Source: Eledone cirrhosa
Taxonomy: Eukaryota
Assembly (NCBI GenBank): GCA_964016885.1
Contig: OZ024743.1
Coordinates: 227,354,001-227,418,000, forward strand
Direction of reading: 5' to 3'
DNA: 64,000 bases
The notes under the pieces are model-generated. The model searched no databases. It saw only the letters and a list, made by a program, of their open reading frames with translations, and was not told the DNA's origin. A program made the position numbers and the translations under genes. Positions 2,883 to 60,429 of this stretch are shown here, piece by piece (positions within the stretch are counted from its first letter, which is position 1; every line of letters begins with the position of its first letter).

Positions 2883-4179
2883 CAGGGTGGGGCATAAAAA
2901 CTGTTACAAAATAAAATGCAAATAGTTCTTGAAAAAAATATTTATTTCAAGATCTGACTTCAACAAATAGTAAGTAATATACTATTAAACAACTGCACAA
3001 CAATTTATTTGAAATGCTTTCCTCTAACTCTCACCACCGCTGGAAGAGTTCTAGGAAAGTCTTCGATGACTGCACGAACAGTTTCTATGGGTATTTTCTC
3101 CCATACTTTATTCAGTTTTGATTTTAGAGTTTCAATATTTTGGCTAGGAGTAGAGCAGGTTTCACTCTCAAAAATTGACCATAAAGAAAAATCGAGAGGG
3201 TTGAGATCTGGTGATGTGGGAGGCCACTCTTCCTTACTGAACCATGCAGGTCTCTACACCACTGTTGTGTTATGCAAGCAGTGTGGCTCGTCGCTCCATC
3301 TTGTTGGAGAGTCCAAATGTCATCACCATAAACAGATATGCACCATGGCATCAGTGCTCCTTCCAAAATATCCTTTATGTAAAGTTCTTTGTTAATTTTA
3401 ACTCCTTGAGGCACAAAAATCAGAGGAGACTTACCTCTTTCAGAAATGGCTGCCCAACTCATCACTGATGCTGGTTTCTGTGTTCTGAACACTTTTCCTA
3501 CACTTGAAGGAATTGATTTGAGACTTTTTGCAAGTACTCGATCATTTTGATGATTGTGAGACTGCTGCACAGTGAATAACTTCTCATCTGTAAAGATGAT
3601 GTTTTGCAGCGTGCCATCCTTGATACAGTTCAATAACAGTTTACTTCTGGAGAGCCTCTTTTCAATTGTGGCTGCAGAAAGAAGCTCCCTCTTTTGGCAC
3701 TTATAGGGTGACATCCCCAGATCATTTCGACATATCCTCCGCATAGTTCTCGGCGATGTTTCTGCTTCTTCTGCCATTTTTCTCATGGACTTTCTTGGAT
3801 TACGCCTTATTTTTTCCCTCACACTTTTAACGAGTTTTGGTGTTCTTGTGGTGCGAGGGCGTCTGGATCGAGGTCTGTCTTTGATCGAGGAAGTTTCCTT
3901 AAATCGATCGATTGTCCTTTTGATCAACATTCTATTGATCTTAAGAATTTTCCCCAGTTTAAATATCTTGGGTGGAGTCAGGCCTTTTTCATGCTTCGCT
4001 ATTATGAACTTTCTTTTCAATTCTATGGACATTGTAAATTGTTAATGGAGTAATGTTCTGAAAAATAGTTAATATGGTTATAGTGCATGGATTTGATACA
4101 AATATATTAGTTATATTAGCGACATAATGTATTTTTAAATTGATTTAAAACTTTGTAACAGGAATTATGCCCCACCCTG
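2883..4179 (-). mobile_element. Tc1/mariner DNA transposon (DDxD, maT/DD37D-like), full length
   Basis: TA at 2881-2882 and 4180-4181. 28-bp TIRs: CAGGGTGGGGCATAAAAACTGTTACAAA vs CAGGGTGGGGCATAATTCCTGTTACAAA (3 mismatches). Confidence 0.95.
3005..4032 (-). pseudogene. Transposase with one frameshift near 3243
   Basis: ORF 4032-3124 has an HTH region, IIFTDEK and QQDGATSH. A shifted frame continues FSKEEWPPTSPDLNPLDFSLW...GKHFK*. The third catalytic residue is D. Confidence 0.9.
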
Positions 4180-4280: not shown

Positions 4281-4480
4281 AGGAAAAGAGTCAAGACCCC
4301 GATGGCTGAGCTTCCGCCGTTTCTACAGTTAGATCCGAACGTTCGGTTCTAGCTGTCGAAACGGCCGGAGCTTAGCCGTCGGGGTCCTGACTCTTTTCCT
4401 ATTACCCACTCTACTACCCTAAGTATCGAGTACTCTGGTGCATTATGGTCCACCTGGTATCTTTTCACACCTTCTTTGTT
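4281..4480 (+). mobile_element. PLE-type 3' fragment (family E) with a 120-bp fold-back of the HHR 3' half
   Basis: Imperfect palindrome 4281-4400 containing GTCGAAACGGC...AGCCGTC-GGGGTC. The tail CACTCTACTACCCTAAGTATCGAGTACTCTGGTGC is shared with ~30672-30745 and ~41737-41808. Confidence 0.75.
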
Positions 4481-4510
4481 ATTATAATATATGTGTGTAT
4501 ATATATATAT

Positions 4511-4991: not shown

Positions 4992-5441
4992 TGATATTTG
5001 TTTATTGAAAAAGGCAACAAAGATTTAATATAATATGTCTGTTTGGGAACAGGTTTCGAATTGACCAATAGAAAAGTAGTAAGTGGTCAAGTTGATAGAA
5101 TAGTAGAAGTAGAAATTTAATTTAGGGGTAGAGGAATGCAGACTTCAGTTATGTTGACTCTGTTTTCCTGTGATTTTCATCGAAAAAATGTTGAATACAA
5201 CTTCTCTTTTCATGATATTTGGATTACATTGAATTCTTCATACGGATTGGAAACTACCGTATATTTTGGTAGATTTATCTACATATATATATATTTTGAG
5301 TATATGTTGGTTGTATACCAACACGTCAATATGCAGGCTGGAGAACTCGACGTAGTGCGCAGGTTGGTTTGGTTACTCCGGAGTAATGTAAAATAAAGTA
5401 AAATAAATAAATCAAATGTTTAAAATTTAGCTTCGTTTATT

Positions 5442-5496
5442 ACTGCTATATATATTTCGGTGACAGCCATCTTTGGCTGTGACCTCTTCAGGCAGT
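5442..5496 (-). ncRNA. Minimal type-I hammerhead ribozyme
   Basis: Reverse complement identical to 6504-6558. Confidence 0.85.
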
Positions 5497-6503
5497 CCGA
5501 ATTAGTGTGGTATAGACAAGTACATATGTTGTTGAGGTGTATAATTTTGTCAATACTTTGATATGCCCAGTTCCTGGTTGGGTTGTTATTTCACTGTGGA
5601 ACTGGAGTCATATGAATTCAAACAAACGAATTTCAGTGTCAAAGGGCCTCTTCTCCTCTCATTGGTCAGTTGTTAGAACATTCCTCATTCAAAAGTCTAT
5701 AGAAATTCGTTCTGAGGCAAGCCAATCTGTAGTTGTTGTTCTTGTTATTGTTAGGTACATCTGACCTCAATTCTTGTGTTGGTAGTGTTGTTATTGTTGG
5801 AGTTAGCTTTAAAAATTGATAAAGTGGTAGAAGGAACAAGGTGGTAAAGGAACAAAATAACAAAAAAATGTCAAACTTCCCATTGGTCAGTTTTGAGAGC
5901 ATTCCTCAGTCAGAAGTCTATAGAAATTCTTTCTGGGGTGAGGCTCCCTGTAGTGTTTGTGTTTGCTATTGTTAAGTACATTTGACCTCTACCCTTAATT
6001 CGGTAGTGTTGTTGGTGTTGTGGTCAGCTTATGTCTTGCTGCTGCTGACAATTTAGAAGTATCTGTGTGTGTTTTTTCATCCCTCCTGCCACCATCTTCC
6101 GTGGTGGTAGTGCGGGGGGGGGGGGGACATGTATATGAAGAAATATAAGGCAATAAATGAAGAAAACAGAAAATAAATAATAAATAGAGAACAAAGAATA
6201 AATGAAAAATTGGTGAAAAAGTAATGAAAATGAATATGGAGAAGTGAAAAATAAAATGAAGATTCTAATAAAGTAAAATAAAGTGTGTGTGTGCTATAAC
6301 CAATCTGAAGGTCAGAAATATGTTGGATAGATTGGTATGAGGAACAAGATGTTCAAATAATAAAAGAATAAGATAATCAAACAAAATGTGTTTGTGTTAT
6401 AATCAATCTCAACTTAAAAATAAATATAGGGTGATACAGTGAAGTATTGACAAAATTGTACACCTCAACAACATATGTACTTGTCTATACCATACTAATT
6501 CAA

Positions 6504-6558
6504 ACTGCCTGAAGAGGTCACAGCCAAAGATGGCTGTCACCGAAATATATATAGCAGT
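6504..6558 (+). ncRNA. Minimal type-I hammerhead ribozyme, intact core
   Basis: ACTGC-CTGAAGA-GGTCACAGCC AAAGAT GGCTGTCACC-GAAA-TATATA-TA-GCAGT, followed immediately by AATAAA (6559-6564). Confidence 0.9.
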
Positions 6559-6619
6559 AATAAACGAAGCTAAATTTTAAACATTTGACTTATTTATTTT
6601 AATTTATTTTAATTTATTT

Positions 6620-6677
<58 letters not shown>

Positions 6678-6844
6678 AAATAAATTAAAATAAATTAAAA
6701 TAAATAAGTCAAATGTTTAAAATATCTTTATGATATATTGTTTTTGTTTATGCCACGAAACTACGTAGTCGAGGAATTTAGGAGCAGTTTAGGTATGATA
6801 CATTTTATTACTAATTATATCTAAATGTTTCTTCTCTCTTCATA

Positions 6845-14962: not shown

Positions 14963-15055
<93 letters not shown>

Positions 15056-15300
15056 CATATATATATATATATTGTTATGCTTTGGGAGTGTCATGTTGCC
15101 AATAAGAAACACACGCACCAGTTGCTTTCACTCCAATTTATAATAAATTAAATTTATAAATGTTTGGTTGGTTGGTTGGTTCCTTACACACACACACACA
15201 GACATACACACACATTATATATATGCATGTATGATATATGTATGTAAATATATAATCTTGCTAAACAAATTCAGAAACGAAATATATATATATATATATA

Positions 15301-16028
15301 TTTATTAAAATAACAGATTAAAGTTTAAGCAAAGAATCGTTGCTTTCACCCTTAACGGGATCTTCTGAAACTAACAAAGTCAATCTGTAAACGCAGAACT
15401 GGATATTTCAAAAAGCGTTGCAACCGGAGGAAGACAGGAAGACGATACTTTGGTTCGTGGTAACGTTCGCTGGCAAAGAACGGGAAAAAACGAATATAAT
15501 ACGTCATTAATAGGAGCGGTGAAAAACAATTACGCGCAAAGACAGAACCACGTTTATGGTATAAAAGAGGTCGTAGACTAATGTTCTCTTAGGTGGTGCA
15601 TAGAGACGTTCTCTGGCAATGAACGAAAAAGCGAAGATAATAAGTCATATGTGGAGCGTAGAGAACAATAGCACGCAAAGACAAAACCACGTAAATGGTA
15701 TAGCAGAAGTCGTAGAATAAATTCTAACTAGGAGACCGAATGAGTTTCCGCTACGGAGTTAAGAACAAAGTAAATAAATACAATACAGAAGTAATAGAAA
15801 TAAATAAATACATACACGCAAACAAAAACGTACATACACAAGCATACGCAAAAACTTACCATAGGTAAACAAAACCAGAAGATCCCGTTAAGGGTGAAAG
15901 CAGCGATTCTTTGCTTAAACTTTAATCTGTTATTTTAATAAATATTTGCTCTACGGTTCTTATATATTTGATATATATTTATCCTTATCGAGCCCTCTTT
16001 GGATTTTAGTCTTCAAATTTATTATTAT

Positions 16029-16032: not shown

Positions 16033-16111
<79 letters not shown>

Positions 16112-16158
16112 TTTTGCGAGGTTTTTATATGAAATCGTGTGTCGAAACAAATATTGTT

Positions 16159-16857
16159 ATACTTGGGGAGGGTCATATTTGTGTAATATTGCCAGAATTA
16201 ATAACAGAACACACTCACTGTTTGGTTGGTTTTCGCTTCTCGCTGTCTTTTATATCGGTAATCTAACTTACTCGGTCCTCAATCTTGCCATTGACTGACC
16301 GACGGTCAAAAATGATACAGATACAATATAGACACAAACACATATATATAGTTTATCATAAATCTTTCGTTGCACATCTGCAACATCGTCAGTGGTGTTA
16401 TATTTTCCTCCTGTTGTGTTGTATGTCTACGCCATTTTTATTCAGTCTGTCTATATATTTATTTATTTATTTATTTGCTTGTTTGTTTATTTTATTTTGT
16501 TTTCTTTGCGCATGCGTTTGCGTGTGTGTATAGTGTTATGTTTGATGTGTGATGGGTGACTGGTGTGTGTTTATGTGCTTGTTGTTATTGTGCTTGTGTA
16601 TGTATTTATTTATTTATTTATTTATCTTATTTTATTTACTTATTTATACTTCTCTTAGGTCAGTGTTGTTTGTTTGGGTGTTGTTGTTATTCCATTCACT
16701 CTTTCTGTTTAGCTTTGGTCTTCTAATTTCTATTGAGGACCGAGTAAGTTAGATTACCGATATAAAAGACAGCGAGAAGCGAAAACCAACCAAACAGTGA
16801 GTGTGTTCTGTTATTAATTCTGGCAATATTACACAAATATGACCCTCCCCGAGTATA
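16159..16857. mobile_element. Non-coding element with near-perfect ~125-bp inverted ends
   Basis: 16159-16283 is the reverse complement of 16732-16857; the terminus resembles the PLE tail family (GGGAGGGTCAT...TTGCC). Confidence 0.8.
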
Positions 16858-17641: not shown

Positions 17642-17867
<226 letters not shown>

Positions 17868-18140
17868 CGTTTCTGAATTTGTTTAGCAAGATTCTATATT
17901 TAGCAAGATTATATATTTACATACATATATCATACATGCATATATATAATGTGTGTGTATGTCTGTGTGTGTGTGTGTGTGTGTAAGGAACCAACCAACC
18001 AACCGAAAATTTATAAATTTAATTTATAATAAATTGGAGTGAATGCAGCTGGTGCGTGTGTTTCTTATTGGCAACATGACACTCCCAAAGCATAACAATA
18101 TATATATATATATATAGATATGTATGTATGTATATGTATA

Positions 18141-18172
<32 letters not shown>

Positions 18173-28542: not shown

Positions 28543-28619
<77 letters not shown>

Positions 28620-28774
28620 ATACTTTGGGAGGGTTATGTTGCCAATAAGAAACACACGCACCAGTTGATTTCACTCATAAATTAAATTTATAAATTTAAG
28701 AATTTATAAATTTAAGAATTTGTAAATTTCCGGTTCGTTGGTTGGTTCCATAACCGGTCGGTTGTTCATATATT

Positions 28775-28817
28775 GTCAAAGTTCTTACGTCACACATTCT
28801 GTGACCTCTTCAGTGAC
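28775..28817 (-). ncRNA. Minimal type-I hammerhead with GAAA mutated to GTAA
   Basis: rc GTCA-CTGAAGA-GGTCACAGAATGTGTGAC-GTAA-GAAC-TT-TGAC. Confidence 0.6.
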
Positions 28818-29055
28818 TGGGGATTATTTTCTTTGTTTTGTGCCTCTCCTTTGTTCTGTCCTACGCCATCTTGTTTTTGTGTGTGTTGTGTGCTTAGTTT
28901 GCGCATGTGTTACATCCGGGTGCCTGTGTGTGTTTTTATTTGTTTATTTATTTGTTTATTTACATGTTACTGGTTGGTTGTTTGTTCTGTGTGTGTGTTT
29001 TCATTTTGTCCATAATTGTAAGTTGTGATGTTGCTATTCCATTCATGTTTTCTAT

Positions 29056-29520
29056 TTAATTTTGGTCGGAGTTCATTGCCTCTGTGATTTGTCTAAACAT
29101 TGCGTCTTTTCTGTGTGTAGATTTTATTTTCATTTCTATTTTCTCTAATTTGTCCTTATGTTCTATTTTAGCATGTTGGTGGAGTATTGATGATTCTTTT
29201 TTATCTTGAAGCTCTCGCCAGTGTTCATTTAACCGTTCTCCTATCCTACGAGCTGCCTCACCTATGTACAGTATATTCTTATCTTTACATTGTCCTTCAG
29301 TACATCTTATGCTATATACTACATTTCTAGTTTTACAGTTAATATGGGGGATTAGTTTACAGCTTATGCATTTCTTATCTATACAGGGAGGTCTTTGAAA
29401 AGGGTATGTATTACTAATAAGTGTTTTTATGGAGGTACCTGGTCTTTCTACTATCTTAATATTAAGTTTAAGTTTATCTAGGGCCCTTCTAAATTTGTGA
29501 GCTAATTCAACCCCTAGAGG
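29056..29520 (-). pseudogene. PLE GIY-YIG endonuclease C-terminus with Cys-rich linker
   Basis: PPCIDKKCISC...NCKTRNVVYSIRC...LYIGEAARRIGERLNEH...SSILHQH...DAMFRQITEAM. A frameshifted mirror copy lies on + at ~29520-29970. Confidence 0.88.
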
Positions 29521-30211
29521 TGAATTAGCGTACAAATTTAGAAGGGCCCTAGATAAGCTTAACTTAATATTAAGATAGTAGAAAGACCAGGTACCTCCAT
29601 AAAAACACATTATTAATACATACCCTTTTCAAAGACCTCCCTGTATAGATAAGAAATGCATAATCTGTAAACTAAGCCCCCATATTAACTGTAAAACTAG
29701 AAATGTAGTATATAGCATATACTACAATGTAAATATAAGAATATTGTGTACATAGGTGAGACAGCTCGTAGTATAGGAGAACGGTTAAATGAACACTGGC
29801 GAGAGCTTCAAGATAGTAAAGAATCATCTGTACTCCACCAACATGCTAAAATAGAACATAAGGGCAAATTAAAGAAAATAGAAATAAAAATAAAATCTAC
29901 ACAGAAAAGACGCAATGTTTAGACAAATCAGAGGCAATAAACATAAATGAACTCCAACCAAAATTAAATAGAAAAGATGAATGGACTAGCAACATCACAA
30001 CTTACAATTAAGGACAAAATGAAAACACACACACACACATAGAATAAACAAGCAAACAGTAACATGTAAATAAACAAATAAATAAACAAATAAAAACACA
30101 CACAGACACCCGGATGTAACACATGCGCAAACTAAGCACACAACACACACAAAAACAAGATGGCGTAGGACAGAACAAAGGAGAGGCACAAAACAAAGAA
30201 AATAATCCCCA

Positions 30212-30254
30212 GTCACTGAAGAGGTCATAGAATATGTGACGAAAAAACTTTGAC
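30212..30254 (+). ncRNA. Minimal type-I hammerhead
   Basis: GTCA-CTGAAGA-GGTCATAGAATATGTGAC-GAAA-AAAC-TT-TGAC, downstream of the GIY-YIG stop. Confidence 0.7.
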
Positions 30255-30420
30255 AATAGATGAAAGCAACTGGTGCGTGTGTTTCTTATTGGCAACATGA
30301 CCCTCCCAAAGTATAACAATATTGGTTTCAACACACGTTTTCTTGATAAATAATCTTGTTAAACAAATTCAGAAACGAAATATATATATATATGTATATA
30401 TATATATGTATATATATATG

Positions 30421-30509
<89 letters not shown>

Positions 30510-30511
<2 letters not shown>

Positions 30512-30744
30512 GGGAAAATGTATGACCCCGACGGCAGAGCTCATGGCGTTTCGACAGCTATTTCTGGACTAAATTAGAATTTTTAGCCTTGTGAAAATTC
30601 TAATTTAGTCCAAAAATAGCCGTCGAAACGGCTTGAGCTCTGCCGTCGGGGTCATACTTTTTCCCATTTCCCACTCTACTACCCTAAATATTGAGTACTC
30701 TGGTGCGTTATGGTCCATTTGGTTCCTTACCACAATTCCTGTGT

Positions 30745-30745
<1 letters not shown>
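30510..30745 (+). mobile_element. Family E fragment with a ~155-bp fold-back
   Basis: Palindrome 30510-30667. The right arm carries TAGCCGTC-GAAA-CGGCTTGAGCTCTGCCG-TC-GGGGTC; both sides are (TA)n. Confidence 0.8.
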
Positions 30746-30775
<30 letters not shown>

Positions 30776-31357
30776 CAGAATTCTTCGAATCTTTATCCTA
30801 GCCGAAGGGTCGTTTTAAGAAATGTAATGTATTTCACTCCATTTTCTTGTCTCTCCATGTTTTACTCGGTCCATTTACTTAGAATCCAATCTTTTCTATT
30901 TTATTCGATAGTTTTGTCAGACCTTTAAAAACAATTTTCTTCTATTTAAATTTTGATTACTGTTACACGTTCGTTTAATAACCTTCTCGTATTTAAACAC
31001 TGATTACTGTTATACGCTCGTTTAAACTATGGTCTAATTTGTAGGTTTAGATTATAAAAATAACCTTCTCTTTAACTTCCCCATATTCCCCCCTCTCCCA
31101 CTCGCCACCATTATTATATGGTCCAATCATAATTCAGCGGCTTATATGTTTCTCTTACCAATCTCTTTCACAAAACCACCGTCTCGGCTATCACTCCTTA
31201 AGTTTAAACCTGGTTTATTTTGATATGCTAGATGGACTATAGAATTCTGGAGAGTATGAAGAATCTGGACACTCAAAAGACAATGTCAAAGATAAAGATG
31301 AATTCACCTCATGTTGCCGGATAAGAATGCAAGGACTCCTCTTTATTTCAGACGCGG

Positions 31358-34300
31358 ATGGCTAACATAACCCCATCTCCCTCACCACTCCCTGCGCCTC
31401 CAACCCATCTCTTCCACCCACCAAACGAAATCCAAAACTTCAGAATTGGTACCATGAATGCAGGCACTTTAAAAAGTCGCTCTAACGAGGTTGTAGAGTT
31501 GCTTGAACGTAAGGAAGTTGATGTTTGTTGCGTCCAAGATACTAGGTGGAGTGGTGGGTCTGCGAGATTCATTGTGGGTAAAAAAACGATGCTATAAACT
31601 TTTCTGGGTGGGAAATGAAAACGGGCTGGGTGGAGTAGGAATTATGTTAGCTGAAAAATGGGTAGATAAGGTAATTGACGTAAATAGAGTGAACGACAGA
31701 ATAATCAAAATAAGACTTGTCCTAAATAGAACTACAGTGACAATAATATCTGCTTACGCACCCCAATCTGGACTGACAGGCGTTATAAAAGACAGATTTT
31801 ATGAGTCGCTAATGCTCACTACCTCCCAACTAACCAACATTGACTACATAATTATTGCTGGCGACCTAAATGGTCATGTTGGATAACATTGTGACGACTA
31901 TGACGGAATCCATGGAGGCTACGGGTTTGGCACCAGAAATGAGGAAGGTTTCAGAATCCTGGAATTCTGTGACGCTAATAACCTAACTATCTGTAACACA
32001 GACGTTAAAAAATGAGACAATCACTTGATCACCTATAGATCAGGGGAACACGCAAGTCAGATAGATTATATCCTTACCAGAAGACGTGACAAAGTGCCTG
32101 TTGTAAACACTAAATCCCTCCCCCGTGAAGAATGCACCTCCCAAAATAGCCTCATAGTTAGTGACCTCATAGTCAGGACGAGACGTACACGACAACAGAG
32201 GAGGACTACCCTGAGAAGAAGAATATGGAAGTTAAAGGACCGCACAGCCAGTAACAAATTTAAAAGCATATTACATGATGTTTTTGACAGTAAGGAAGAG
32301 CAATTAGAGACGTACAGTATAAAGGAACAGTGGGAATTTCTGAAGGTTAACCTGCTGAAGGCGACAGATGAAATCTGTGGATGGAGCAGACCTATAGGCA
32401 GGAGGAGAGTAATATGGTGGTGGAACAGTAAGGTGGAGGAGTCAATCAAGGCCAAAAGGCAAGCTTGGAAAGTATGGCGGAATGGGGGAAGTAGAGAACA
32501 CTATCAAGTGGTCAGCAGGGAAGCTAGGAGACAAGTGTACTTTCCAATAAGGAAGCAGAGGAAAGTAAGTTCAAGCATGTTCTACCACGCGAGGACCAAA
32601 AACGTGAGGTGTTGAGGATTGCTAGACACTGTGTCAAGGAAAACCGTGATATTGTCAGGGAGAAGTGTGTCCGTAATGATGATGGTATACTTGCTATTAC
32701 TGATACTGATAAGAAGGTAGCTTGGAAGTGTCACTACGAGAGGCTAATAAATGAGGAGAATAAGTGGGAAAAAAATAGTCTGCCCCAAATCGATCCAATA
32801 GAGGGACCAGCAGTGCAAGTTAAAGGTAGTATAATAAATAAGGCAATCAAAGATATGAAGACAGGCAAAGCAGCTGGACCTTCGAAGATAGTTGCTGAAA
32901 TGCTGACACCATCTGGAACGGTGGTACAAACTATGGTCACCCGGATAGTAAACCAAGTCTAAAGGATGGGGTCGTACCAAAGGACTGGCGTAGCAGCATC
33001 ATCATTAACTGCTACAAGGGTAAAGGAGATGCCCTAGATAGGGAAAACTATAGAGGCATTAAATTAATTGACCAGGTCATGAAGGTCACAGAAAGAGTTA
33101 TAGCGCAACTAATCTGAGAGCCAATTGATCTAGATATAATGCAGTTTGGGTTTGTGTCAGGTAAAAGTACCACAGACGCTCTTTTCCTTGTACGACAACT
33201 ATAGGAGAAGTACCTAGCTAAAAGTAAACCCCTATACTTAGCTTTTGTTGACTTGAAGAAAGCCTTTGACAGAGTCCCCGGCTCCATTATCTGATGAGCT
33301 CTTAGAAAACTAGATGTTGATGAATGGGCTTGTGAGAGCTATACAAACCATGGATAAAAACACAGTCAGCAAGGTTAGAATTAACAACGAAAATAGTGAA
33401 GAATTTAGCGTAACAGTTGGAGTTCATCAGGGCTCTGGCCTTAGCCCCCTCCTATTTATTATTGTCCTTCAGGCTATAACAGAGGAGTTCAAGACCGGCT
33501 GCCCATGGGAATTTCTATATGCAGATGATCTAACGCTCATAGCTGAATCAATGGCTGAACTAGAGAAGAAATTCCAAACATGGAAGCATGGCCTAGAATC
33601 AAAAGGCCTTAAAATTAACTTGTCTAAGACTAAATTTCTAGTATGTAGGAAGGAAAATAGGGTACTGGTGCCCTCTGGGAAATGCCCATGCTCAGTGTGT
33701 AGGAAAGGAGTAGGCAGAAACTCCATTTTATGTCCCAAATGCAAAGTATGGGTGCATAAAACATGTAGTAGGATCACAGGTAAGCTAACTAAGAACATAG
33801 ATTTTATATGTGGCCGGTGCTCAAGTGCAATAATTAGCACGTGCCCACAGGATACTAGCTCATTCCATTGCCCAGATGGTTCTATAGAAATATAGGACAC
33901 CTTCCGTTACCTGGGTCACAAATCAGCAGTGGTGGAGGGTGCTCTGAAAATACAGTAGCCAGAGTCAGAACGGGATGGAAAAAGTTCAGAGAGCTTATAC
34001 CACTATTGGCCGCTAAAGGTATCTATCTTAAAATGAAAGGCAGACTGTATGATGCCTGCATACACACAGGAATGTTATATGGCAGTAAGACATGGGCATT
34101 ATGTGCAGAGGTTATATGCAGACTGGAAAGGAACGAAGCTTGCATGCTCCGTTGGATGTGTAATAGTAATATACGTGAACGGCAAAGCATAAATGAACTA
34201 AGTGAGAAATTAGGAATAAGAGGGATCAGATGCTGTTTACTCGAGAGAAGACTACGTTGGTATGGTCATGTGATGCGCATGAAATACGGTCAACTGTATA

Positions 34301-34867
34301 AAAAAGTGCAGGGCGATCAAAGTTGATGGAAGCTACGGAGTAGGCAGACCCAGAAAAACCTGAGACGATTTGATAAATTCCGACCTTACACACTTACACC
34401 TCTCCAAGACAATGTCACTGGACCGAGATCTTTGGCGCTACACAGAAATACAGAAGACCCTCCTTGCCTAAGTACAAAGCGAAATCTACAATCAGTAGGC
34501 ACCTCTTAACCAAAAATATACCCCCATCACACTACCCCTACCCCCACCCCCATCCTCACCACCCCTTTCTCTGTAAAGTTATGTTGGTACCACAACATCC
34601 AGTCCTAAATAAAGGAGGTCGTGTAGGTGTCACGACAAAAAAAAACACAGTCCACGCTGTAATGTGGCCGTGTAGGTAACACGGTAAAAATCTCCCAATT
34701 CACACTGTAAATGTGGTTGGTATTAGGAAGCGCACCCAGCCGTAGAAAACCTGCCAGGCAGTCCTATACGAGCAATACAACCAATCTAGCCTGAAGTAGG
34801 ACAATTCCCGTCTAAACCCATGCTAGCGTGGAAGATAGAATTTAAACGATGATGATGATGATGATGA

Positions 34868-34870: not shown

Positions 34871-34910
<40 letters not shown>

Positions 34911-34911
34911 C

Positions 34912-35805
34912 CGAACGCTTATCGAAAAAGCAAGCCAGAGAAAACAACAACCAGTACAAACTGCCCTATTCCTATCACAAGTATGTGTCAGCGAACATAT
35001 GTATTTTACCGCATGCGATAAATATAGATATTTACATCGGTAGTACCGTTAGATCTCTTTCAACCACCATTAAAGAACATCTCAATACACACGCATCATC
35101 CTTTAGAAAACACTTAGACAAATGCAAAAACAACAAAATGTTAACAGTTACTATTGAAACCAAAGAGAGGAACTTAGGCAACGTTATAATCAAAGACGGA
35201 ATACTAATACCTATGCTTAACCCACAAATCAACAACAGATTAGAACTCAGAACACAATTGTTAATATAAATGCACACATACGCAACGTCCGACATAGTAA
35301 AGCATACATGCTTAATAGCCAAATGTAACAGACAATTACAATTAGATACACAACATTCGTCATGTAAACGCATGCATACAAAACCCAAACACAAGACTCA
35401 ATTCAGAATAGCTACATCATTTAATCTACTGCAATTTGACACATTAGCATCTTAAAATATTTACATAAAAACATAATCAAAAGTACACAATATTTGACAG
35501 AAACATTCATACACGCACAGACAACATTATACAAGGCAGTGCATAGACGACATCACTCTCCCATCACTTCCGGCAGCTATGAATAGACCACAGTTTACAA
35601 ACGAAGGAAGAAAAAATGGTGAGTCGATAAGATGAAAACGTCGAGCCAGTTTCTTTATAATATTTTCCTGGTGAAGGGCTTTTGAGACAAAATATTAGGA
35701 CAGGTAAATAACATAACAGTGACACACTAACATAGTTATTGTTTTCAATATATTCCCAAATCTATCATCCATTGTGAAATGCCTTAGCCTTCATACTGCT
35801 TTATA
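34912..35805 (+). mobile_element. PLE 3' remnant (GIY-YIG) with non-coding tail
   Basis: YIGSTVRSLSTTIKEH...DGILIPMLNPQINNRLEL (ORF 34985-35269); bounded by (TA)n. Confidence 0.8.
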
Positions 35806-35880
35806 TAATATATATATATATTATATAAAGCAGTATGTTATTTGAAGGCTAAGGCATTTCCCAATGGATGATAGATTGGA
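35757..35880. repeat. (TA)n-centred palindrome
   Basis: AATCTATCATCCATTG.GAAATGCCTTAGCCTTCA TACTGCTTTATATAA is mirrored after the TA tract, with a small insertion in the right arm. Confidence 0.85.
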
Positions 35881-35941
<61 letters not shown>

Positions 35942-35948
<7 letters not shown>

Positions 35949-36059
35949 AAAAAAAGATGAAATCGAAAATGCAACTGGAGTCTTATTTTAAAAAATATAT
36001 ATATATTTTTTAAAATAAGACTCCAGTTGCATTTTCGATTTCATCTTTTTTTCTTTATA
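35942..36059. repeat. Near-perfect ~118-bp palindrome centred on TATATA
   Basis: TATAAAGAAAAAAAGATGAAATCGAAAATGCAACTGGAGTCTTATTTTAAAAAA followed by its reverse complement. Confidence 0.9.
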
Positions 36060-36121
36060 CTTTCACTCGCGTAGGACACCTCGGTTATTTTTCATTTTGT
36101 AAAAAAAAACCTCACTTTCTA

Positions 36122-37032: not shown

Positions 37033-38632
37033 CTAAGGCGGGTAAAATTCCCGAGATCCATGGACGAGTTCTCTCCAGCGGTCTCTGTCCCTCATTATCG
37101 CTGCCATGTCCTGCGTCTCCAATAGACCAGTGTCTGTCCTTAGGGCATCAACATACGTTAACCTTGGTCTTCCTCTTCTAGTGTGTCCATGTAGGGGCTC
37201 CCAAAGGAGGACTGAGTGCAATGTCAACTCTGGATGTCAGTGAGCATGTCCAGCTAACCTCAGTCTCCTCTGTGTCACTTTTGAGCTGACTTTTGGGATG
37301 CTCCCATACCGCTCTGAGTTTTTCATCCTCAGTGTATACTGATTAATGTTCAGAGCCATCCTCAGCATTCTCGTGTAGCACCCATCCACCATCTGAGTAA
37401 GTTTCTTGGTCAGTGTCCAAGTCTCAGACCCATACAGCAGCACAGACTCCACTACAGCAATGAAGAGGCGGATTTTCAGGTCTCTACGAAGGACCGACTT
37501 CCACACCGATCTCAAGCTGTGGCACGCCGCCCAGGCCTTGCTCTTCCTCTCAACCACATCATCTTCCGTATTCCCAATCTTTGCTCCCAAATACAGGAAG
37601 CCCTCAACCAATTCTAGCGGCTTCCCGCTTACATTAGTGATCCCCTCTGGCTTCTCAACATTCTCTACCAGATATTTTGTTTTAGTCTTATTCATTCTCA
37701 GCCCCACACTCATCGACACAGTCTCAACCTCCCGCATCAAATCCTCTGCCTCCTTCACTGTATTTGTCACCAAAACTATGACGTCGGCAAATTCAGCATC
37801 CGATACCTTTTTCGCCCTAACTCTCCTGCTCTGAGCCGGTTCCACAGTAAAGCCAGAGTCCTGGTGTTTCTCCAGTGCAAGGCGCATACAATAGTCCACT
37901 ACGATGATAAAAAGGTAGGGAGCCAATGTATCTCCCTGGAGCACTACAGCCAGTATCTCAAAGAACTCTGTCATCCCATCAGGTGTAATGACTTGGGCTT
38001 TGGTGTTGGTGTAGAGCAGTGATATCAGGTCCACTATCTTCTTGGGGATTCCATAAGCCTGTAAGATCTTCATCAGGCAGTAACGGTCCACAGAATCAAA
38101 GGCCTTCCTAAAGTCAATGAAAACCATGACTGCAGGAAGGCACTTTGCTCTAGCTCCCTCTAATATCCTCCTCAGCATCAGGATGTGACTGGTGGTTGAT
38201 CTACCCCCTCTGAAGCCGTTCTGGTTGTCCCTGAGCTTCTACTCCATCTCAGGCTGGATCCTGTTAAGAATCATCCTGTTGAGGGTCTTTGCCACAAGTG
38301 ACGTCAGTGAGATCCCCCTGTAGTTGTTGGTGTTAGAGAGATCTCCCTTCTTTGGCACTGGGACGATGTTACTGATCATCCACTGATTCGGGGCAACTCC
38401 TCTCTCCAGTGCCCCGTTACAGAACCCCAGGATGATATCATCAAAATCACACCTCTTCATCACCTCTGATGCCACTCCATCTTCTCCATGAGCCTTGCCC
38501 TCCTTGATCCTCTTCTTGGCTCTCTGAAGCTCCTCTCTGGTGAAGTGCTCTGTCTCAACATCCAGTTCCTCAAACAGCCACCTGATCTCCCCAGTGCTCT
38601 GGGCTGTGGAGGCTGGCTCTCCTAGTATGGTC
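37033..38632 (-). mobile_element. 5'-truncated non-LTR retrotransposon (RTE-group RT)
   Basis: PVPKKGDLSNTNNYRGISL, FIDFRKAFDSV, LQGDTLAPYLF, EFADVI, VLLYGSETWTLT, RRLRLAGH, RGRPRLTYVD; internal stop and frameshift. Confidence 0.93.
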
Positions 38633-39371
38633 CTAAAGAGGTATAAGTAAACAACCGAATATATCTTACGGTGACGGGTCAACAAGTGGGGGGCCAAAAT
38701 ACTAAAGAAACTACCACGAAATAATAATTCAGAGTCCCGAGACCAGTACGAAATAAAGGTTTCTATCCCAGGCACAAGGCCAGCAACCACCCAGTGCTAA
38801 TAAAAATAAACTAATACGAAATAATAATTCAGAATCCCGAAAAAGAATACTAATACTATACCTAAGGGTGCCACCACGATACAAAATTCTAGTGCAAACT
38901 ACATAAATGCTCGTACGAAGTATATGTAAAATTTGATACGGAAAATTAATTCAGAATCCCCCCACCCCCCACCCCAAAAAAAGAATAATAAATAAATAAA
39001 TACTGATATACGAGAAATTAAAGCAAAGATACCACTAAGAAATATAGAAAGCACGGAAAAGGGGCAGCCATCGGATAAGAAGGCAAGTATCCGGGGTCTA
39101 ACACATCTGCTATAAAAAGCGGAGTCGGCCAAATCTATCATAGAATAGGGGAAGGGGTGGGGGTACTGAGACTACAAAGGACCGAGGGGCTGCTTCGGGT
39201 GGGCGAGAAAGTAAAAGACGACGACAAAGAGAGAGGACTGGGGTGGAAGGACTAGGGAGGGATGGGGGGAAGAAGGAAATATAGAGGAAGCGATAAAAGG
39301 ATATAAAAGAAGATCTACCTTTGCAAGCAGGGGTTACCCATTACAAAATCGGCAAGTGGGGTGTTATAGTC

Positions 39372-40030
39372 CTAGTCAACCCCCCGGGTCATTATGGGGT
39401 TGATGTCGAGGTAAGTCCTACGCAATCTGTGTTTACATGCAGTTACCAGTTCATCTTTCTTGTTTAGGAGTTGGTCCGTCGAAAACAGCATTTGTAAAGT
39501 TTCCTCCGAGCATAAATTGCACGGACGGCGTCCTCCCGTGTAAGAGTTGGCTCTGAACAGTAAGCTCCAAGTCAGATCATAGGTAATATTGTTATCCTTG
39601 AGGTCCCATATGTGGCCCGAAAGTGTCGTGGCGTGACGCCGGGCCGGGTTTCGGAAGGTATGTCTGTGTTGGCATAGCCGGGTCTTGAAGTCACATGCGG
39701 TTAATCCTATATAAGCTTTGTTGGAGGTGTCCGTCCTCACGTTGCACTGGTAGATCACATTACGATATCTGCATCTGTTGTCGAGGGGGCAAATGGATCC
39801 ATCAGGACAGTTTCACCTCCTGGTCGGCTCTCCACTGCTATTTAGGTTATTTCTTCCATAGGGCTTGAGTTTTTTGTTGCTAGAGGAGACGATGTTTTGT
39901 GCAAAGTTTGGTGTGGTGCTGTAGGAGAGTTTGATGGTATTTTTGTTAATTATGTTGTGGTAGCGGTGTTGTAGTGGGAAGTGTTTTTCAATGAGCCTAA
40001 AGAAGATTTTCCCGATAGGAGTTGTCACTT
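39372..40030 (-). pseudogene. PLE GIY-YIG endonuclease fragment, minus arm
   Basis: NVIYQCNV...AYIGLTACDFKTR...TTLSGHIWDLK...CNLCSEE...LNKKDELVTACKH. Confidence 0.88.
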
Positions 40031-40039
40031 CGGAGGAGG

Positions 40040-40483
40040 TGCAACTGTCCTGATGGATCCATTTGCTCCCTCGACAACAGATGCAGAGATCGTAATGTGA
40101 TCTACCAGTGCAACGTGAGGACGGACACCTCCAACAAAGCTTATATAGGATTAACCGCATGTGACTTCAAGGCCCGGCTATACCAACACAGACATACCTT
40201 CCGAAACCCGGCCCGGCGTCACGCCACGACACTTTCGGGCCACATATGGGACCTCAAGGATAACAATATTACCTATGATCTCACTTGGAGCTTACTATCC
40301 AGAGCCAACTCTTACACGGGAGGACGCCGTCCGTGCAATTTATGCTCGGAGGAAACTTTACAAATGTTGTTTTCGACGGACCAACTCCTAAACAAGAAAG
40401 ATGAACTGGTAACTGCATGTAAACACAGATTGCGTAGGACTTACCTCGCACTCAAACCCCATAATGACCCGGGGCGGGGGTAG
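40040..40483 (+). pseudogene. PLE GIY-YIG endonuclease fragment, plus arm
   Basis: CNCPDGSICSLDNRC...VIY...YIGLT...CNLC...CKH. Confidence 0.88.
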
Positions 40484-41620
40484 ACTAGGGCTATAACACC
40501 CCACTTGCCGATTTTGTAATGGGTAACCCCTGCCTGCAAAGGTAGATCTTCTTTTATATCCTTTTATCGCTTCCTCTATATTTCCTTCTTCCCCCCATCC
40601 CTCCCTAGTCCTTCCACCCCAGTCTTCTCTCTTTGTCGTCCTCCTTTTACTTTCTCGCCCACTCGAGGCAGCCCCTCGGTCCTTTGTAGTCTCAGTACGC
40701 CCACCCCCTTCCCCTATTCTATGATAGATTTGGCCGACTCCGCTTTTTATAGCAGATGTGTTAGACCCCGGATACTAGCCTTCTTATCCGATGGCTGCCC
40801 CTTTTCCGTGGTGTCTATATTTCTTAGTGGTATCTTTGCTTTAATTTCTCGTATATCAGTATTTTTTTTTTTTTTTTTAGGGGGGGGAGGGGGGATTCGG
40901 AATTAATTTTCCGCATCAAATTTTACATATACTTCGTACGAGCATTTATGTAGTTTGCACTAGAATTTTTGTATCGTGGCGGCACCCTTAGAGATAGTAT
41001 TAGTATTCTTTTTCGGGATTCTGAATTATTATTTCGTATTAGTTTATTTTTTTTAGCACTGGGTGGTTGCTGGCCTTGTGCCTGGGGTAGAAACCTTTAT
41101 TTCGTACTGGTCTCGGGACTCTGAATTATTATTTCGTGGTAGTTTCTTTAGTATTTTGGCCCCCCACTTGTTGACCCGTCACCGTAAGATATATTCGGTT
41201 GTTTACTTATACCTCTTAAAAGGGTCTCATTATAATTCCGTCCCACCTAGTAAACCTTTCTTTAGTCTAGCAGTACCAGTGAGAGACTTGATAGCTGTCC
41301 TTAGGTTATAGTAACCAGAAATTGTTTTTTTCATTTAATTGTTTTTTAACACTCCCGGTTTTTTTTCTATATATTTACCCCATATTGTTTTACTTATTGT
41401 TTCGACCCCCCCCCCCCCAGTATCTTCTTTGACCTCCTTCCCAGCTGTGGTTGGCACTATCAACGCACGACTGGGTTTCCACCACCCGCTCTCCCTATTT
41501 CTTTTACTGGCACGTTCAGCTACCCCCTCCCGCCACAAATTGCCATGATAGAATTATTATGTCTCAACAACAAACTTTTGACCAATCCTTGTGACAATCA
41601 CTTTTACCATATATGGAATT

Positions 41621-41716
41621 ACCTCCTGAGAAGCTCGGCTATTCAAATACCAGGATAAAAATTTTCATTTAGTCCAGAATTAGCCGTCGACACGGCTTGA
41701 GCTCAGCCGTCGGCAT
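41621..41716 (+). ncRNA. Degenerate full-length family-E type-I hammerhead
   Basis: ACCTC-CTGAGAA-G.CGGCTA...TAGCCGTC-GACA-CGGCTTGAGCTCAGCCG-TC. Both core blocks are mutated, but the other copies supply GAAA and stem I' GGGGT. Confidence 0.55.
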
Positions 41717-41807
41717 CCTACTCGTTTCTATTACACACTCTACTACCCTAAGTATTGAGTACTTTGGTGCGTTATGGTCCATCTGATTCCTTACCACATT
41801 TCCTTCG

Positions 41808-41863
<56 letters not shown>

Positions 41864-42043
41864 GGATATGTGTTCCTTCACGCACAAGGCGCTAAGGTAC
41901 GCATGTATTGTCCAACCAAATGCCAGTGTGGTTCAATGGCAGGTTAATAAATTAACGAGCCAGAACAAATATAAACAAGGTTTAGCAAATAATGAAAAAG
42001 TTTCAAAATAAATTTAAAAAAATTGACTTTACCTACTATAGTT

Positions 42044-42126
42044 ACCTTTACCGATCGGTTTCGAATCCCAAAAATAAACGGAGACCATACGGCCTTCGTT
42101 GCAAAGAAAGATTCTCGTCAGAAGGT
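42044..42126 (-). ncRNA. Type-I hammerhead, intact (family A)
   Basis: Reverse complement of 42700-42782. Confidence 0.9.
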
Positions 42127-42699
42127 TCTTTTCATTCGAAGAATATAAAATTCCTGAATTTAAATTACGAACTAGCGCTATCAAAACTGTTCCTGGGATG
42201 AGAGTGGATGATGTAGAAACAGGTTTATCAAGGGCCGAAGTAAAGATAGGGGCAGAAGGAGGTAGGTCAAACCAGCCGCAGCTATCACTAGCAGCAGTCG
42301 GAGCGACCAAATTTGTTCTCAACTTAGAGGAGTTAGTAATAATAGGATATGTGTTCCTTCACGCACAAGGCGCTAAGGTACGCATGTATTGTCCAACCAA
42401 ATGCCAGTGTGGTTCAAACTGGCATTTGGTTGGACAATACATGCGTACCTTAGCGCCTTGTGCGTGATGGAACACATATCCTATTATTACTAACTCCTCT
42501 AAGTTGAGAACAAATTTGGTCGCTCCGACTGCTGCTAGTGATAGCTGCGGCTGGTTTGACCTACCTCCTTCTGCCTCTATCTTTACTTCGGCCCTTGATA
42601 AACCTGTTTCTACATCATCCACTCTCATCCCAGGAACAGTTTTGATAGCGCTAGTTCGTAATTTAAATTCAGGAATTTTATATTCTTCGAATGAAAAGA

Positions 42700-42782
42700 A
42701 CCTTCTGACGAGAATCTTTCTTTGCAACGAAGGCCGTATGGTCTCCGTTTATTTTTGGGATTCGAAACCGATCGGTAAAGGT
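42700..42782 (+). ncRNA. Type-I hammerhead, intact (family A)
   Basis: ACCTT-CTGACGA-GAATCTT...GGGATTC-GAAA-CCGATCGG-TA-AAGGT; GUA cleavage site. Confidence 0.92.
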
Positions 42783-42849
42783 AACTATAGTAGGTAAAGT
42801 CAATTTTTTTAAATTTATTTTGAAACTTTTTCATTGTTTGCTAAACCTT

Positions 42850-42877
<28 letters not shown>

Positions 42878-42884
<7 letters not shown>

Positions 42885-42994
42885 CACACATATATACATA
42901 TTTACACATTTTTGGATGGCCGTTGACTCTTATGAATTCTTCTTCCCCTTTGTCAGGTCTTGTTTTGTGTCCAGCTTACATATACGTATATATT

Positions 42995-43063
<69 letters not shown>

Positions 43064-43200
43064 GTGTGTGTGTATATATATATGTATGTAAATATATACG
43101 TATATGTAAGCTGGACACAAAACAAAACCTGACAAAGGGGAAGAAGAATTCATAAGAGTCAACGGCCATCCAAAAATGTGTAAATATGTATATATGTGTG

Positions 43201-43208
<8 letters not shown>
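42878..43208. repeat. Microsatellite-centred palindrome of a dispersed repeat fragment
   Basis: ~42880-43005 is mirrored at ~43078-43205; related sequence at 54435-54500. Confidence 0.85.
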
Positions 43209-43257
<49 letters not shown>

Positions 43258-48030: not shown

Positions 48031-48224
48031 TTATTTATTTATTTATTATGTAGTTATGTAATAAACAACATAATATAATTATTTCATTTACCAGTGATTT
48101 CTTGAAAGCAAACAAATCTGCTTTCAGTCGTCAGAATGAAACAAATCCTGGTGTTTTTATTGAATATGGATTTTATTGAAAGTGCATTTAAAATATATAT
48201 ATATATATATATATAAATAAAGTG

Positions 48225-48326
48225 GTCCTTCGTCAGTGATCTTCCAACCATCACAGGTATTTCTTTGCTTTAAAGACCATATACCTCCGGTTGGTGCGAG
48301 CAACGGCTAAAAAAAGTCGTTGGGAC
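48225..48326 (-). ncRNA. Candidate rearranged hammerhead (variant B), intact core
   Basis: rc GTCCC|AACGACT...AGCCGTT g|CTCGCA|CCAACC gg AGGTAT-A-TGGTCTT taa AGCAAA-GAA-ATACCT gtgat GGTTGG AAGATCA-CTGACGA-AGGAC. Confidence 0.7.
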
Positions 48327-48835
48327 ACGTAAATAAAGGGGACAGCGAGAGTGTAAACAAACAAAGATGGTGAAGCAACGAAAAGTGAGGAAGAACGAGT
48401 CAAGTCCCAAATTTCCGTGAATATAAGTTCGGTGAAATCGTGAACGAGAGAGAATAAAGACCATCAAACCTGGTTGGAATGTGAGCAAGAAAGGAATTTC
48501 GTACAGGTCGAACGGGAGGAAGAAGGAATCTAGTCTGTGAATTCGGTGAACATAAGTTCTGTAAAACGTAGACTCGCTCGCTTGGTCAGGCTGGTTCGCC
48601 TTTTCTCTCTCTCTCGTCTACGATTTCACAGAACTTATGTTCACGGAATTCACAGACTAGATTCTTTCTTCCTCCCCTTAGACCTGTACGGAATTCATTC
48701 CTTGCTCACATTCCAACCAGATTTGATGGTCTTTATTCTCTCTTGTTCACGATTTCACCGAACTTATCTTCATGGAAATTTGGGACTTGACTCGTTCTTC
48801 CTCACTTTTCGTTGATTCACCATCTTTATTTACGT

Positions 48836-48937
48836 GTCCCAACGACTTTTTTTAACCGTTGCTCGCACCAACCGGGGGTATATGGTCTTTAAAGCGAAGT
48901 AATACCTGTGATGGTTGGAAGATCACTGACGAAGGAC
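48836..48937 (+). ncRNA. Candidate rearranged hammerhead (variant B), GAAA mutated to GTAA
   Basis: Mirror copy of 48225-48326; stem II is TCGC/GCGA. Confidence 0.62.
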
Positions 48938-48983
48938 CACTTTATTCATATGTAACCCATTTGCAACCACGCAGCTCGTTTAT

Positions 48984-49024
<41 letters not shown>

Positions 49025-51267: not shown

Positions 51268-51310
<43 letters not shown>

Positions 51311-51438
51311 AAGTTTTATTTAAATTGTTGGGTTAACAACGAGTAAATATTTATAACTGATATAAAAGCACTCAACAAGTATTTGGAGTATATTTATGAT
51401 ATTAAATAAATGGAAACTATATTTATAAAACCATATTT

Positions 51439-51502
51439 ATTTCGTTATATATATTTCAGGGATATCATATTAACAATATGTTATGCCTTCTTCAGACAAA
51501 AT
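51439..51502 (-). ncRNA. Minimal type-I hammerhead, intact
   Basis: Reverse complement of 51874-51937. Confidence 0.85.
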
Positions 51503-51873
51503 ACAATATAAACAGTCTTATAAATAAATAGATACGACATACCTTTCAATCACCTTGCATTTGGGAGGTTGATTTGGCAGTAAAAAATATTGTGGACAGT
51601 TGTAAAAAGAAAGAGAGAAAGAAAGAAAGAAAGAAAGAGAAACGAAGAAAAAGAAAAAATGCATGTGACTAAATAGAGAGATATATAGAGATATATATCT
51701 CTCTATTTAGTCACATGCATTTCTTCTTCTTTCTTCGTTTCTCTTTCTTTCTTTCTTTCTCTCTTTCTTTTTACAACTGTCCACAATATTTTTTACTGCC
51801 AAATCAACCTCCCAAATGCAAGGTGATTGAAAGGTATGTCGTATCTATTTATTTATAAGACTGTTTATATTGT

Positions 51874-51937
51874 ATTTTGTCTGAAGAAGGCATAACATAT
51901 TGTTAATATGATATCCCTGAAATATATATAACGAAAT
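51874..51937 (+). ncRNA. Minimal type-I hammerhead, intact
   Basis: ATTTTGT-CTGAAGA-AGGcATAaCATATTgttAATATGaTATcCCT-GAAA-TATATA-TA-ACGAAAT, overlapping AATAAA. Confidence 0.87.
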
Positions 51938-51975
51938 AAATATGGTTTTATAAATATAGTTTCCATTTATTTAAT

Positions 51976-52034
<59 letters not shown>

Positions 52035-54819: not shown

Positions 54820-55197
54820 ACATGAACAATACCACATAAATTTGTTTTGAAAATTTTGAAAGTAGGTTTATAAGTATGAATTTTAATAAGATTTTCGTAG
54901 TTGTCTCTGAAGCCTTGCGGTAAGTAATAAAGACGCTGGAGATCCTAGCCTTGGGTTCAATCCTGGTCAGGAGGTACATGTAACCTTTTTTCAGTTTTTA
55001 TTTTAGAAGCAATAGGAAAAAACTGAAAAAGTTCACCGGGACCTTACTGTCGACCAGGATCAAACTTCAGACCAGAATCACCATCGTCTATGATTTCTCC
55101 AACTAGGCTATCGAGACAGCTAGAAGACTACAATGAAAATTGATAATCATAAACCTACTTTCAAAATCAAAGTTAAATAGATGTGGTTTCGTTCATA
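54820..55197. repeat. Degenerate ~380-bp palindrome with two convergent tRNA-like units
   Basis: ATTTTGAAAGTAGGTTTAT (54853-54871) is mirrored exactly at 55149-55167. B-box GGTTCAATCC at 54954 (+). A-box TAGCCTAGTTGG and B-like GTTTGATCC at 55052-55117 (-). Confidence 0.7.
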
Positions 55198-58335: not shown

Positions 58336-58349
58336 CATCGATAAATAGA

Positions 58350-59528: not shown

Positions 59529-60429
59529 CGATAGATAGATAGATAGATAGGCATACAGGTAGACAGACAGACGGATAGATAGATTGATAGATAAATGGGT
59601 AGACAGAGAGATAAAAAGAATGATAGATAGATTGATGGGAAAATAGAGATATGGAAATATAGATATAGATAACTAGGTAAATAAATAGAGAGACAGACAG
59701 ATAGACAGCTAGCTAGATGGATGGAAAAATAGATAGATATATTGACTGACTGATAGACACCTAGATAGATAGTTAGATAAGTAGATAGATCGATACTTTA
59801 TGAATGACAACTGACAACAGTCATCAAACTGGCACACACTCTAACGGCTAAATTGACATCAATTCATATGTATATGAATTAATGTTGGCTGACTAACAAC
59901 TGTTAGACAGATTTAAATATATTTATATGCGTGAGTGTGTACGGGTGTATATACATATATAAATGTGTGTGTATGTGTGTATGTGTGTGTACGGGTTTAT
60001 ATGCGTATACAAATATGTGTGAGTGTGCGTGACGGATGTGTGTGAAGGTCTGTCTATATACATATACTATGGACTTTCGCATTATTTTCGTTTACAAAAT
60101 TTGACACAGTGTATTGCTTTATACACATAAGTCTATAATACAGAACGCCTGTACAATGTGCCACGCATTGCAATCAGACTCCGCCAGTTTATAAACAATC
60201 AAGGAGGGTCAGTTAATATAACTAACAATGTTTCATAGTTGAACACTGACTGACAAGCAGTCACCGAAACATCAGAATGTCTGGAGAGACAACTTGTGAA
60301 TGCTTCCCCGCTTGTTTAATTGACAAACATAAATCCAAAATATTGGCTGCCCAAATTGTTGTGCAATCAATGATTAAATATATATATATATATATCGCTT
60401 GGGTGAACAGACAAATTTTACTGGCTGGG

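Follow-up and report, generated by a model that had tools for sequence, protein, structure and literature searches.

Head-to-head pairs of Penelope-like elements in the Eledone cirrhosa genome nearly always join one short and one long 3' end and probably arise by twin priming

We analysed a stretch of 64 000 nucleotides (the window; contig OZ024743.1, 227354001–227418000) from the 3.0 Gb genome of Eledone cirrhosa, which is rich in (TA)n. At 28616–30378 the window carries a head-to-head pair of 5'-truncated copies of a Penelope-like element (PLE), here called family A, set within (TA)n that occupies 28545–28615 on the left side and 30380–30509 on the right. The left arm (28616–29509, minus strand) holds the C-terminal part of the ORF and runs on through the 3' UTR to a short 3' terminus, S; its coding part includes a CX4CxxC linker and a GIY-YIG domain, the latter scoring slightly below the Pfam cut-off (E 3.9e-4). 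The right arm (29508–30378, plus strand) reaches a long terminus, L, and has a deletion of about 80 nt near 30261. Only this arm carries a tail (30320–30378, plus strand), 59 nt long here and 58 nt in other copies. The arms meet at 29508–29520 (plus strand), where 2 nt of microhomology (29508–29509) adjoin an 11-nt single-copy spacer, identified as right-arm sequence by comparison with five copies that read through. A hammerhead-like core (CUGAAGA, stem II, GAAA) was recognized by eye at 30216–30245 on the plus strand and fails a strict hammerhead scan; in its left-arm counterpart, at about 28785–28813, the GAAA is altered. The arms are 91.6% identical over 758 columns and also differ by indels (about 8% divergence).

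A genome search that used the right arm as query found 4366 candidates; we scored 40 of them and fetched 30. Family A copies L026 and L011 have a single ORF with a reverse transcriptase (RT) followed by a C-terminal GIY-YIG endonuclease, the arrangement of endonuclease-bearing (EN+) PLEs. RVT_1 matched at E 2.9e-4 and 2.2e-3, both below the Pfam cut-off, and GIY-YIG at 2.1e-3 and 1.3e-4, the second value at the cut-off. Other EN+ PLE traits are present as well: a CCHH motif whose two cysteines lie between GIY and YIG (translations read by eye), an inverted 5'-truncated copy, a tail and a 3'-proximal hammerhead motif, again by eye. An RT, a CX2-5CxxC linker and a CCHH-bearing GIY-YIG domain make up the layout of Neptune and Nematis PLEs in PMC8557442. 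With its CX4CxxC linker before the endonuclease, family A appears to fit either group, and the linker does not separate the two. A PDB search with the family A ORF returned no solved relative at E up to 1. Family A haplotypes (L001–L030) are strongly mosaic over the last 900 nt, which suggests frequent recombination among copies or templates.

The focal insert is one of eight inverted duplications listed in the original prediction, and a self-BLAST of the window recovered all eight near their predicted positions, with arms 84–99% identical. The prediction had each pair read minus on the left and plus on the right, with 3' ends pointing outward. This polarity holds in 8/8, as judged by ORFs at 28615 and 38636, by a strict hammerhead scan at 5387 and 51395, and at 4281, 30510, 41971 and 48216 by hammerhead-like motifs seen by eye together with family 3' termini that abut (TA)n in other copies. 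The predicted extents describe the inverted overlaps roughly correctly, but the whole inserts are longer, the excess being tail. Unequal arm ends had also been noticed; what escaped attention, and is their informative part, is that there are two fixed sites, used one per arm.

In seven of the eight listed duplications an S end on one arm is matched by an L end on the other. The L end lies on the left in the pairs of family G (5294–6625; tail about 95 nt; hammerheads at 5439–5499 on the minus and 6501–6561 on the plus strand), family D (41860–42857; tail 111 nt) and family F (51308–51987; tail about 85 nt; hammerheads at 51438–51503, minus, and 51873–51938, plus). It lies on the right in the focal insert, a family B subfamily pair (4281–4481), a family B pair (30510–30746; 79-nt tail at 30668–30746) and the family E pair (48208–48990; tail about 40 nt). 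The eighth, at 38636–41810, is the ORF-bearing parent of family B. Its right arm reaches the L end at 41810, while its left arm is cut off at 38636, next to an RT-coding LINE fragment (37237–38796, minus strand), and has lost its end type. Further head-to-head pairs had been missed: a family H pair (16107–16857; H is a sister of A; L left, S right, tail 47 nt), a family I pair (35942–36120; S left, L right, tail about 60 nt) and a family A pair without arm overlap at 15069–15280, made of an S arm and a tail-only L arm and duplicated at 17867–18101. The latter two lie in an inverted duplication (15010–15305 and 17842–18168, 2.5 kb apart) that copies the entire mini-insert with its flanks.

The listed pairs had been taken for products of unrelated families. 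They belong to six families, those at 4281, 30510 and 38636 being one; the two families with ORFs are PLEs, and the remainder have hammerhead-like motifs and two fixed ends. Treating 38636–41217 as a separate, equal-ended family was rejected, family B being the 3' end of the element at 38636–41810. In that element's ORFs (39372–39812 and 40019–40483), neither of which matched Pfam, we read by eye the motifs of the Hydra clade: a CxCX5C linker, no CCHH, and CxxC and CxH around a conserved E and N. A canonical hammerhead and a (TA)n target, also Hydra-clade traits, are present. By this motif match the endonuclease region of family B appears Hydra-like. Families D, E, F, G, H and I are putative PLEs: all have two fixed ends and flanking (TA)n, on which the assignment of family I is based, and for the other five hammerhead-like motifs were used as well; ORFs in D and E had no Pfam match.

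Some palindromes of the window centred on (TA)n break the polarity rule, namely 6592–6723, which is tail-to-tail, 35748–35888 and 42853–43232. The last two are centred on simple repeats and lack PLE polarity; 42853–43232 duplicates a piece of another abundant repeat, and 35748–35888 has no other copy among the sampled loci. The sequence at 54822–55196, found also in L057, L071 and L096, represents a repeat family whose copies each form an imperfect palindrome, with arms about 70% alike. Each arm is conserved across copies; this family is MITE-like and distinct from the PLE pairs. For the pairs themselves, a DNA transposon or MITE with terminal inverted repeats was rejected, as their ends are unequal and their junctions differ from copy to copy. 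The window further contains a Tc1/mariner-like transposase (3124–4041, minus), LINE fragments with RT and a PHD finger (31325–34326, plus), zf-RVT LINE fragments (57555–59672, minus) and another GIY-YIG-like PLE fragment recognized by eye (34871–35269, plus). An Rfam scan of the window gave 219 rows, and the hammerhead family was absent among the 150 listed; these were microRNA and snoRNA models, none of which reached its gathering score; most fell on simple repeats or palindromes, and all were discarded.

Every family has two fixed 3' ends, with L lying 40–111 nt beyond S; family A copies, for example, terminate at S or 58 nt further on. The S and L sites are each followed by short AT motifs. 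A rarer third family A end, longer than L, occurs in L141, L124, L092:1805–1842 and L020, and in L141 it is paired with an L end.

Pairs across the genome combine these ends in a regular way. Among short head-to-head pairs of family A, one S arm faced one tailed arm in 50 of the 50 listed of 133, and family B pairs were S+L in 50 of the 50 listed of 2892 (47 mixed by the flanking base, three on reading of the flank). Family F gave 17 S+L pairs out of 19, besides one S+S and one complex pair; a single-base readout is ambiguous in this family, the first tail base of one subfamily being identical, and was resolved by fetching eight places. Long family B copies comprised five S+L pairs and one L+L (L226). 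A pattern intended for S+S pairs (130 places) also catches L arms; all eight places fetched were S+L, and this count was replaced.

An unbiased sample of 90 stretches of 10 kb (900 kb) at fixed coordinates was tallied by hand from a BLAST-based list for families A, B and I, without seven sister-family rows from A and three weak, terminus-less rows from B. Family B contributed 23 S+L pairs, one S+S pair, four head-to-head pairs with a damaged end, six single copies and three left unassigned; family A contributed ten S+L pairs, one damaged pair and nine single copies, and family I two S+L pairs and three single copies. Head-to-head pairs thus made up 41 of the 62 insertions of the three families, in line with the earlier claim that they are the commonest product; 18 looked single and three were unassigned. 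Where both ends were intact, 35 of 36 head-to-head pairs were S+L. The one S+S pair, from family B, sits within a larger inverted duplication.

As a control we took tail-to-tail neighbours across short (TA)n, which were SS in 53 cases, SL in 18 and LL in 14, that is, like-ended in 67/85. Short head-to-head matches (494 of the kind described below and the 133 above) outnumber these 85, although spacers differ and the counts are not strictly comparable. Tail-to-tail palindromes centred on (TA)n, such as 6592–6723 in the window and L056:1873–3650, form a second, smaller class. Being mostly like-ended, it fits true fold-back at a microsatellite that copies its flank.

The two arms need not overlap at all. 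At 494 places in the genome an S arm is joined straight to a tail-only arm; of the 30 fetched, 29 have their S end flush with the target and one is in three parts. The corresponding tail–tail pattern gave one match against 494, and that one combines L with a still longer end. These mini-inserts never extend to the hammerhead. Among 20 long family A pairs the tail was on the 5'-shorter arm in ten (two of them duplicates), on the longer arm in five, and the arms were within 5 nt of each other in four; L187 was set aside as probably two insertions. Spacers between arms reach 700–1000 nt. In family B, most arms end 48–64 nt before S, which accounts for its near-zero spacers and near-perfect palindromes; they probably stall there at an RNA hairpin. 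This cluster of 5' truncations falls inside the stem II region of the hammerhead, past the presumed cleavage site, so the family B template was probably uncleaved.

The original prediction proposed asking whether differences between arms are shared with other copies. At the focal locus they are in part: the arms are discordant at four linked sites, and each state is a common family A haplotype, so that gene conversion, a template switch or two RNAs would be needed there. Otherwise the arms mostly share a haplotype. All 14 family B pairs parsed (of 16) had the same subfamily-diagnostic segment on both arms, compared with 45/210 cross pairs. Family A arms were discordant at 28 of 225 polymorphic sites versus 83.9 expected, and eight of the 28 are in L187, which is discordant at eight of its 14 sites. 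One T/C site was discordant in 0/50 head-to-head and 4/50 tail-to-tail pairs. These comparisons suggest that arms usually come from one source haplotype. Alternatively, gene conversion between arms could have produced the sharing, and genome sequence cannot separate one RNA from two transcribed at one locus.

Microhomology of at least 2 nt (range 2–7 nt) was present at 24 of 36 parsed junctions, from 38 loci, versus 17% by chance, and several other junctions carry short insertions; inspection of junctions had been proposed as a check. Direct repeats of 12 and 13 bp flank two pairs that lie in mixed sequence (L180 and L149), as expected from a single event at a staggered cut. At L064:6060–6144 and L132 the junctions contain a short stretch copied again in tandem or an additional, third segment derived from the tail region, which suggests slippage or template jumps during joining. 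We rejected spread of one composite master element as a unit, given the many junction types and the occurrence of one junction on both T/C variants.

We propose that each pair is one PLE insertion made by programmed twin priming from the two target ends, and we assign this reading a probability of roughly 0.65. After endonuclease cleavage of the two strands of an AT-rich target, one freed 3' end would start cDNA synthesis at S and its counterpart at L, probably with a single RNA as template. The polymerase primed at L would displace the other strand on passing S, both cDNAs would stall early, and host repair would join them through a few bases of inverted microhomology. The product would have outward-pointing 3' ends and a single tailed arm, and its spacer could have any length. 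Priming by both 3' ends of a break, one of the routes in the original prediction, is made likely by the one-S-one-L rule and the non-overlapping arms, together with an in vitro analogy. For PAc, a Poseidon PLE of a lizard, the green anole, PMC11167929 describes cleavage and extension of both strands of an AT-rich target, two reverse-transcription starts that bound the tail, dispensable hammerhead cleavage and a predicted dimer. Measured against LINE-1 twin priming, the pairs have the inversion and the microhomology and mostly one source; whether one molecule served lies beyond genome data. The four linked discordant sites of the focal pair count against a single RNA. Evidence against the proposal also includes the exceptions (the L+L pair of L226, the S+S and complex family F pairs, the S+S family B pair and L187), the 18 of 62 insertions that look single, and the use of both start sites by both strands in vitro.

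The priming of two RNAs at one break had been part of the same prediction. Unrelated RNAs disagree with the subfamily sharing of family B (14/14) and the low discordance of family A. A better case, which we nevertheless regard as unlikely, is that two transcripts of one source locus are brought together, one in the S and one in the L register, by an asymmetric protein dimer or by hammerhead pairing of the RNAs. Two polymerases would then not have to share a template, the focal discordance and the mosaic family A haplotypes would suit two templates, and the lizard protein is predicted to be dimeric (PMC11167929). A symmetric dimer, however, predicts SS and LL pairs, which are nearly absent, so an extra asymmetry must be assumed, and arms are nearly always of the same subfamily. 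For the hammerhead-paired version, also raised in the original prediction, we found no evidence: mini-inserts stop short of the hammerhead, whose cleavage is dispensable in vitro according to PMC11167929. Somewhat less probable again is a hairpin route, akin to the 'EN-mediated resolution' named in PMC8557442: the cDNA would fold back into a duplex, and ahead of integration or in its course the endonuclease would make staggered cuts, one strand being cleaved at S and the other at L. It would yield one S and one L end on identical arms, and the AT motifs after S and L could serve as cut sites as well as priming sites. Yet S would fall in the single-stranded loop in the 494 non-overlapping matches, spacers reach 700–1000 nt, and both sites are reverse-transcription starts in vitro (PMC11167929).

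Simple snap-back, in which one truncated cDNA folds and copies itself, was the prediction's other route and comes close to the self-priming of PMC3846280. Many near-zero spacers, shared haplotypes and junction microhomology would agree with it, but a self-copy cannot hold sequence absent from its template, which excludes it for the ten of 20 long pairs with the tail on the 5'-shorter arm and for the 494 matches with tail-only arms. The second arm is not wholly contained in the first, and the like ends that snap-back predicts are found instead in the tail-to-tail class (67/85); with the one-S-one-L rule, this makes it a highly improbable source of the head-to-head pairs. Hardly credible is a fold-back artefact of long reads or assembly. 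Among the public contig-set pieces listed none spans the focal junction, but public contig sets built from short reads do contain fold-back joints of other family copies (one of the samples is possibly the source of the assembly), the focal arms differ by about 8% with indels, the ends obey a family-specific rule and two pairs have target-site duplications.

Programmed twin priming has to be set against what is published, as far as the portions of the cited papers available to us go. The elements and their arrangement are known. PLE inverted repeats are described as abundant, with palindromic junctions, and head-to-head as already 'most frequent' (PMC3846280), so the polarity is less novel than the original prediction made it; like (TA)n targeting and the one-sided tail, it is a published PLE property. 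EN+ PLEs (PMC3846280, PMC8557442) share with the elements described here an RT with C-terminal GIY-YIG, 5' truncation, an inverted 5'-truncated copy at the 5' end, head-to-head as the commonest orientation, (TA)n targets, a tail that is often one-sided and a short target-site duplication. Their tail is optional, on one inverted pLTR, and measures 30–40 bp, whereas here it is 40–111 nt, the S+L combination is near-obligate and non-overlapping arms are common. The published explanation for the palindromes is self-priming on an antisense template, or, for the tail, resolution by the endonuclease (PMC3846280, PMC8557442). What is new is evidence that contradicts this explanation and makes an open question testable.

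PAc agrees with our pairs in both-strand priming, two starts around the tail and an AT-rich target; in the accessible part of PMC11167929, however, each strand used both start sites, no paired product is reported, later steps are left open and priming is described as non-homologous to the cut DNA, whereas here S and L adjoin short AT motifs. LINE-1 twin priming likewise uses two target ends on one RNA and gives an inverted segment joined by microhomology (Ostertag and Kazazian 2001, as described in PMC9148063). The second L1 primer, though, lands at a variable internal site and the arms barely overlap, unlike the PLE pairs, with a second site fixed 40–111 nt from the first, long palindromes and a share of about two-thirds of insertions. 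Non-LTR retrozymes (bioRxiv 10.64898/2026.07.22.740005; PMC7229834) are also short, hammerhead-bearing, PLE-derived repeats, which most family B copies resemble, but are described as head-to-tail monomers and tandems, whereas family B copies come from the 3' part of a PLE with an ORF and lie head-to-head. Neither the near-obligate S+L rule nor non-overlapping inserts nor twin priming by PLEs was found in the literature searched; the older papers of Pyatkov 2004, Evgen'ev and Arkhipova 2005 and Arkhipova 2006, or the supplementary figures of PMC11167929, may bear on them.

More tentatively, and at somewhat less than even odds, twin priming may be the normal integration route of EN+ PLEs, kept across deeply split clades (Neptune/Nematis-like and Hydra-like), with one RNP loading both cut ends on two start sites of a single RNA. 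Each insertion would then begin with a pair of first-strand cDNAs, and there would be no separate priming step for the second strand. Copies that look single would be those in which one cDNA was near zero length, and one step would account for the head-to-head polarity as well as for the tail and the inverted pLTR, supplanting the published antisense self-priming.

The origin of tandem and inverted PLE structures is named as open in PMC8557442, and the steps after priming are left unvalidated in PMC11167929. The S+L rule and the non-overlapping mini-inserts exclude self-copying for the pairs studied here and give a sharp prediction for the existing in vitro system. They would also explain thousands of genuine palindromes (2892 for one motif pair) that could otherwise be mistaken for assembly errors or MITEs. 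If twin priming is correct, PLEs would be a class of retroelements that uses both target ends as programmed primers, with implications both for the telomerase-like branch of RTs and for the use of PLEs for insertion.
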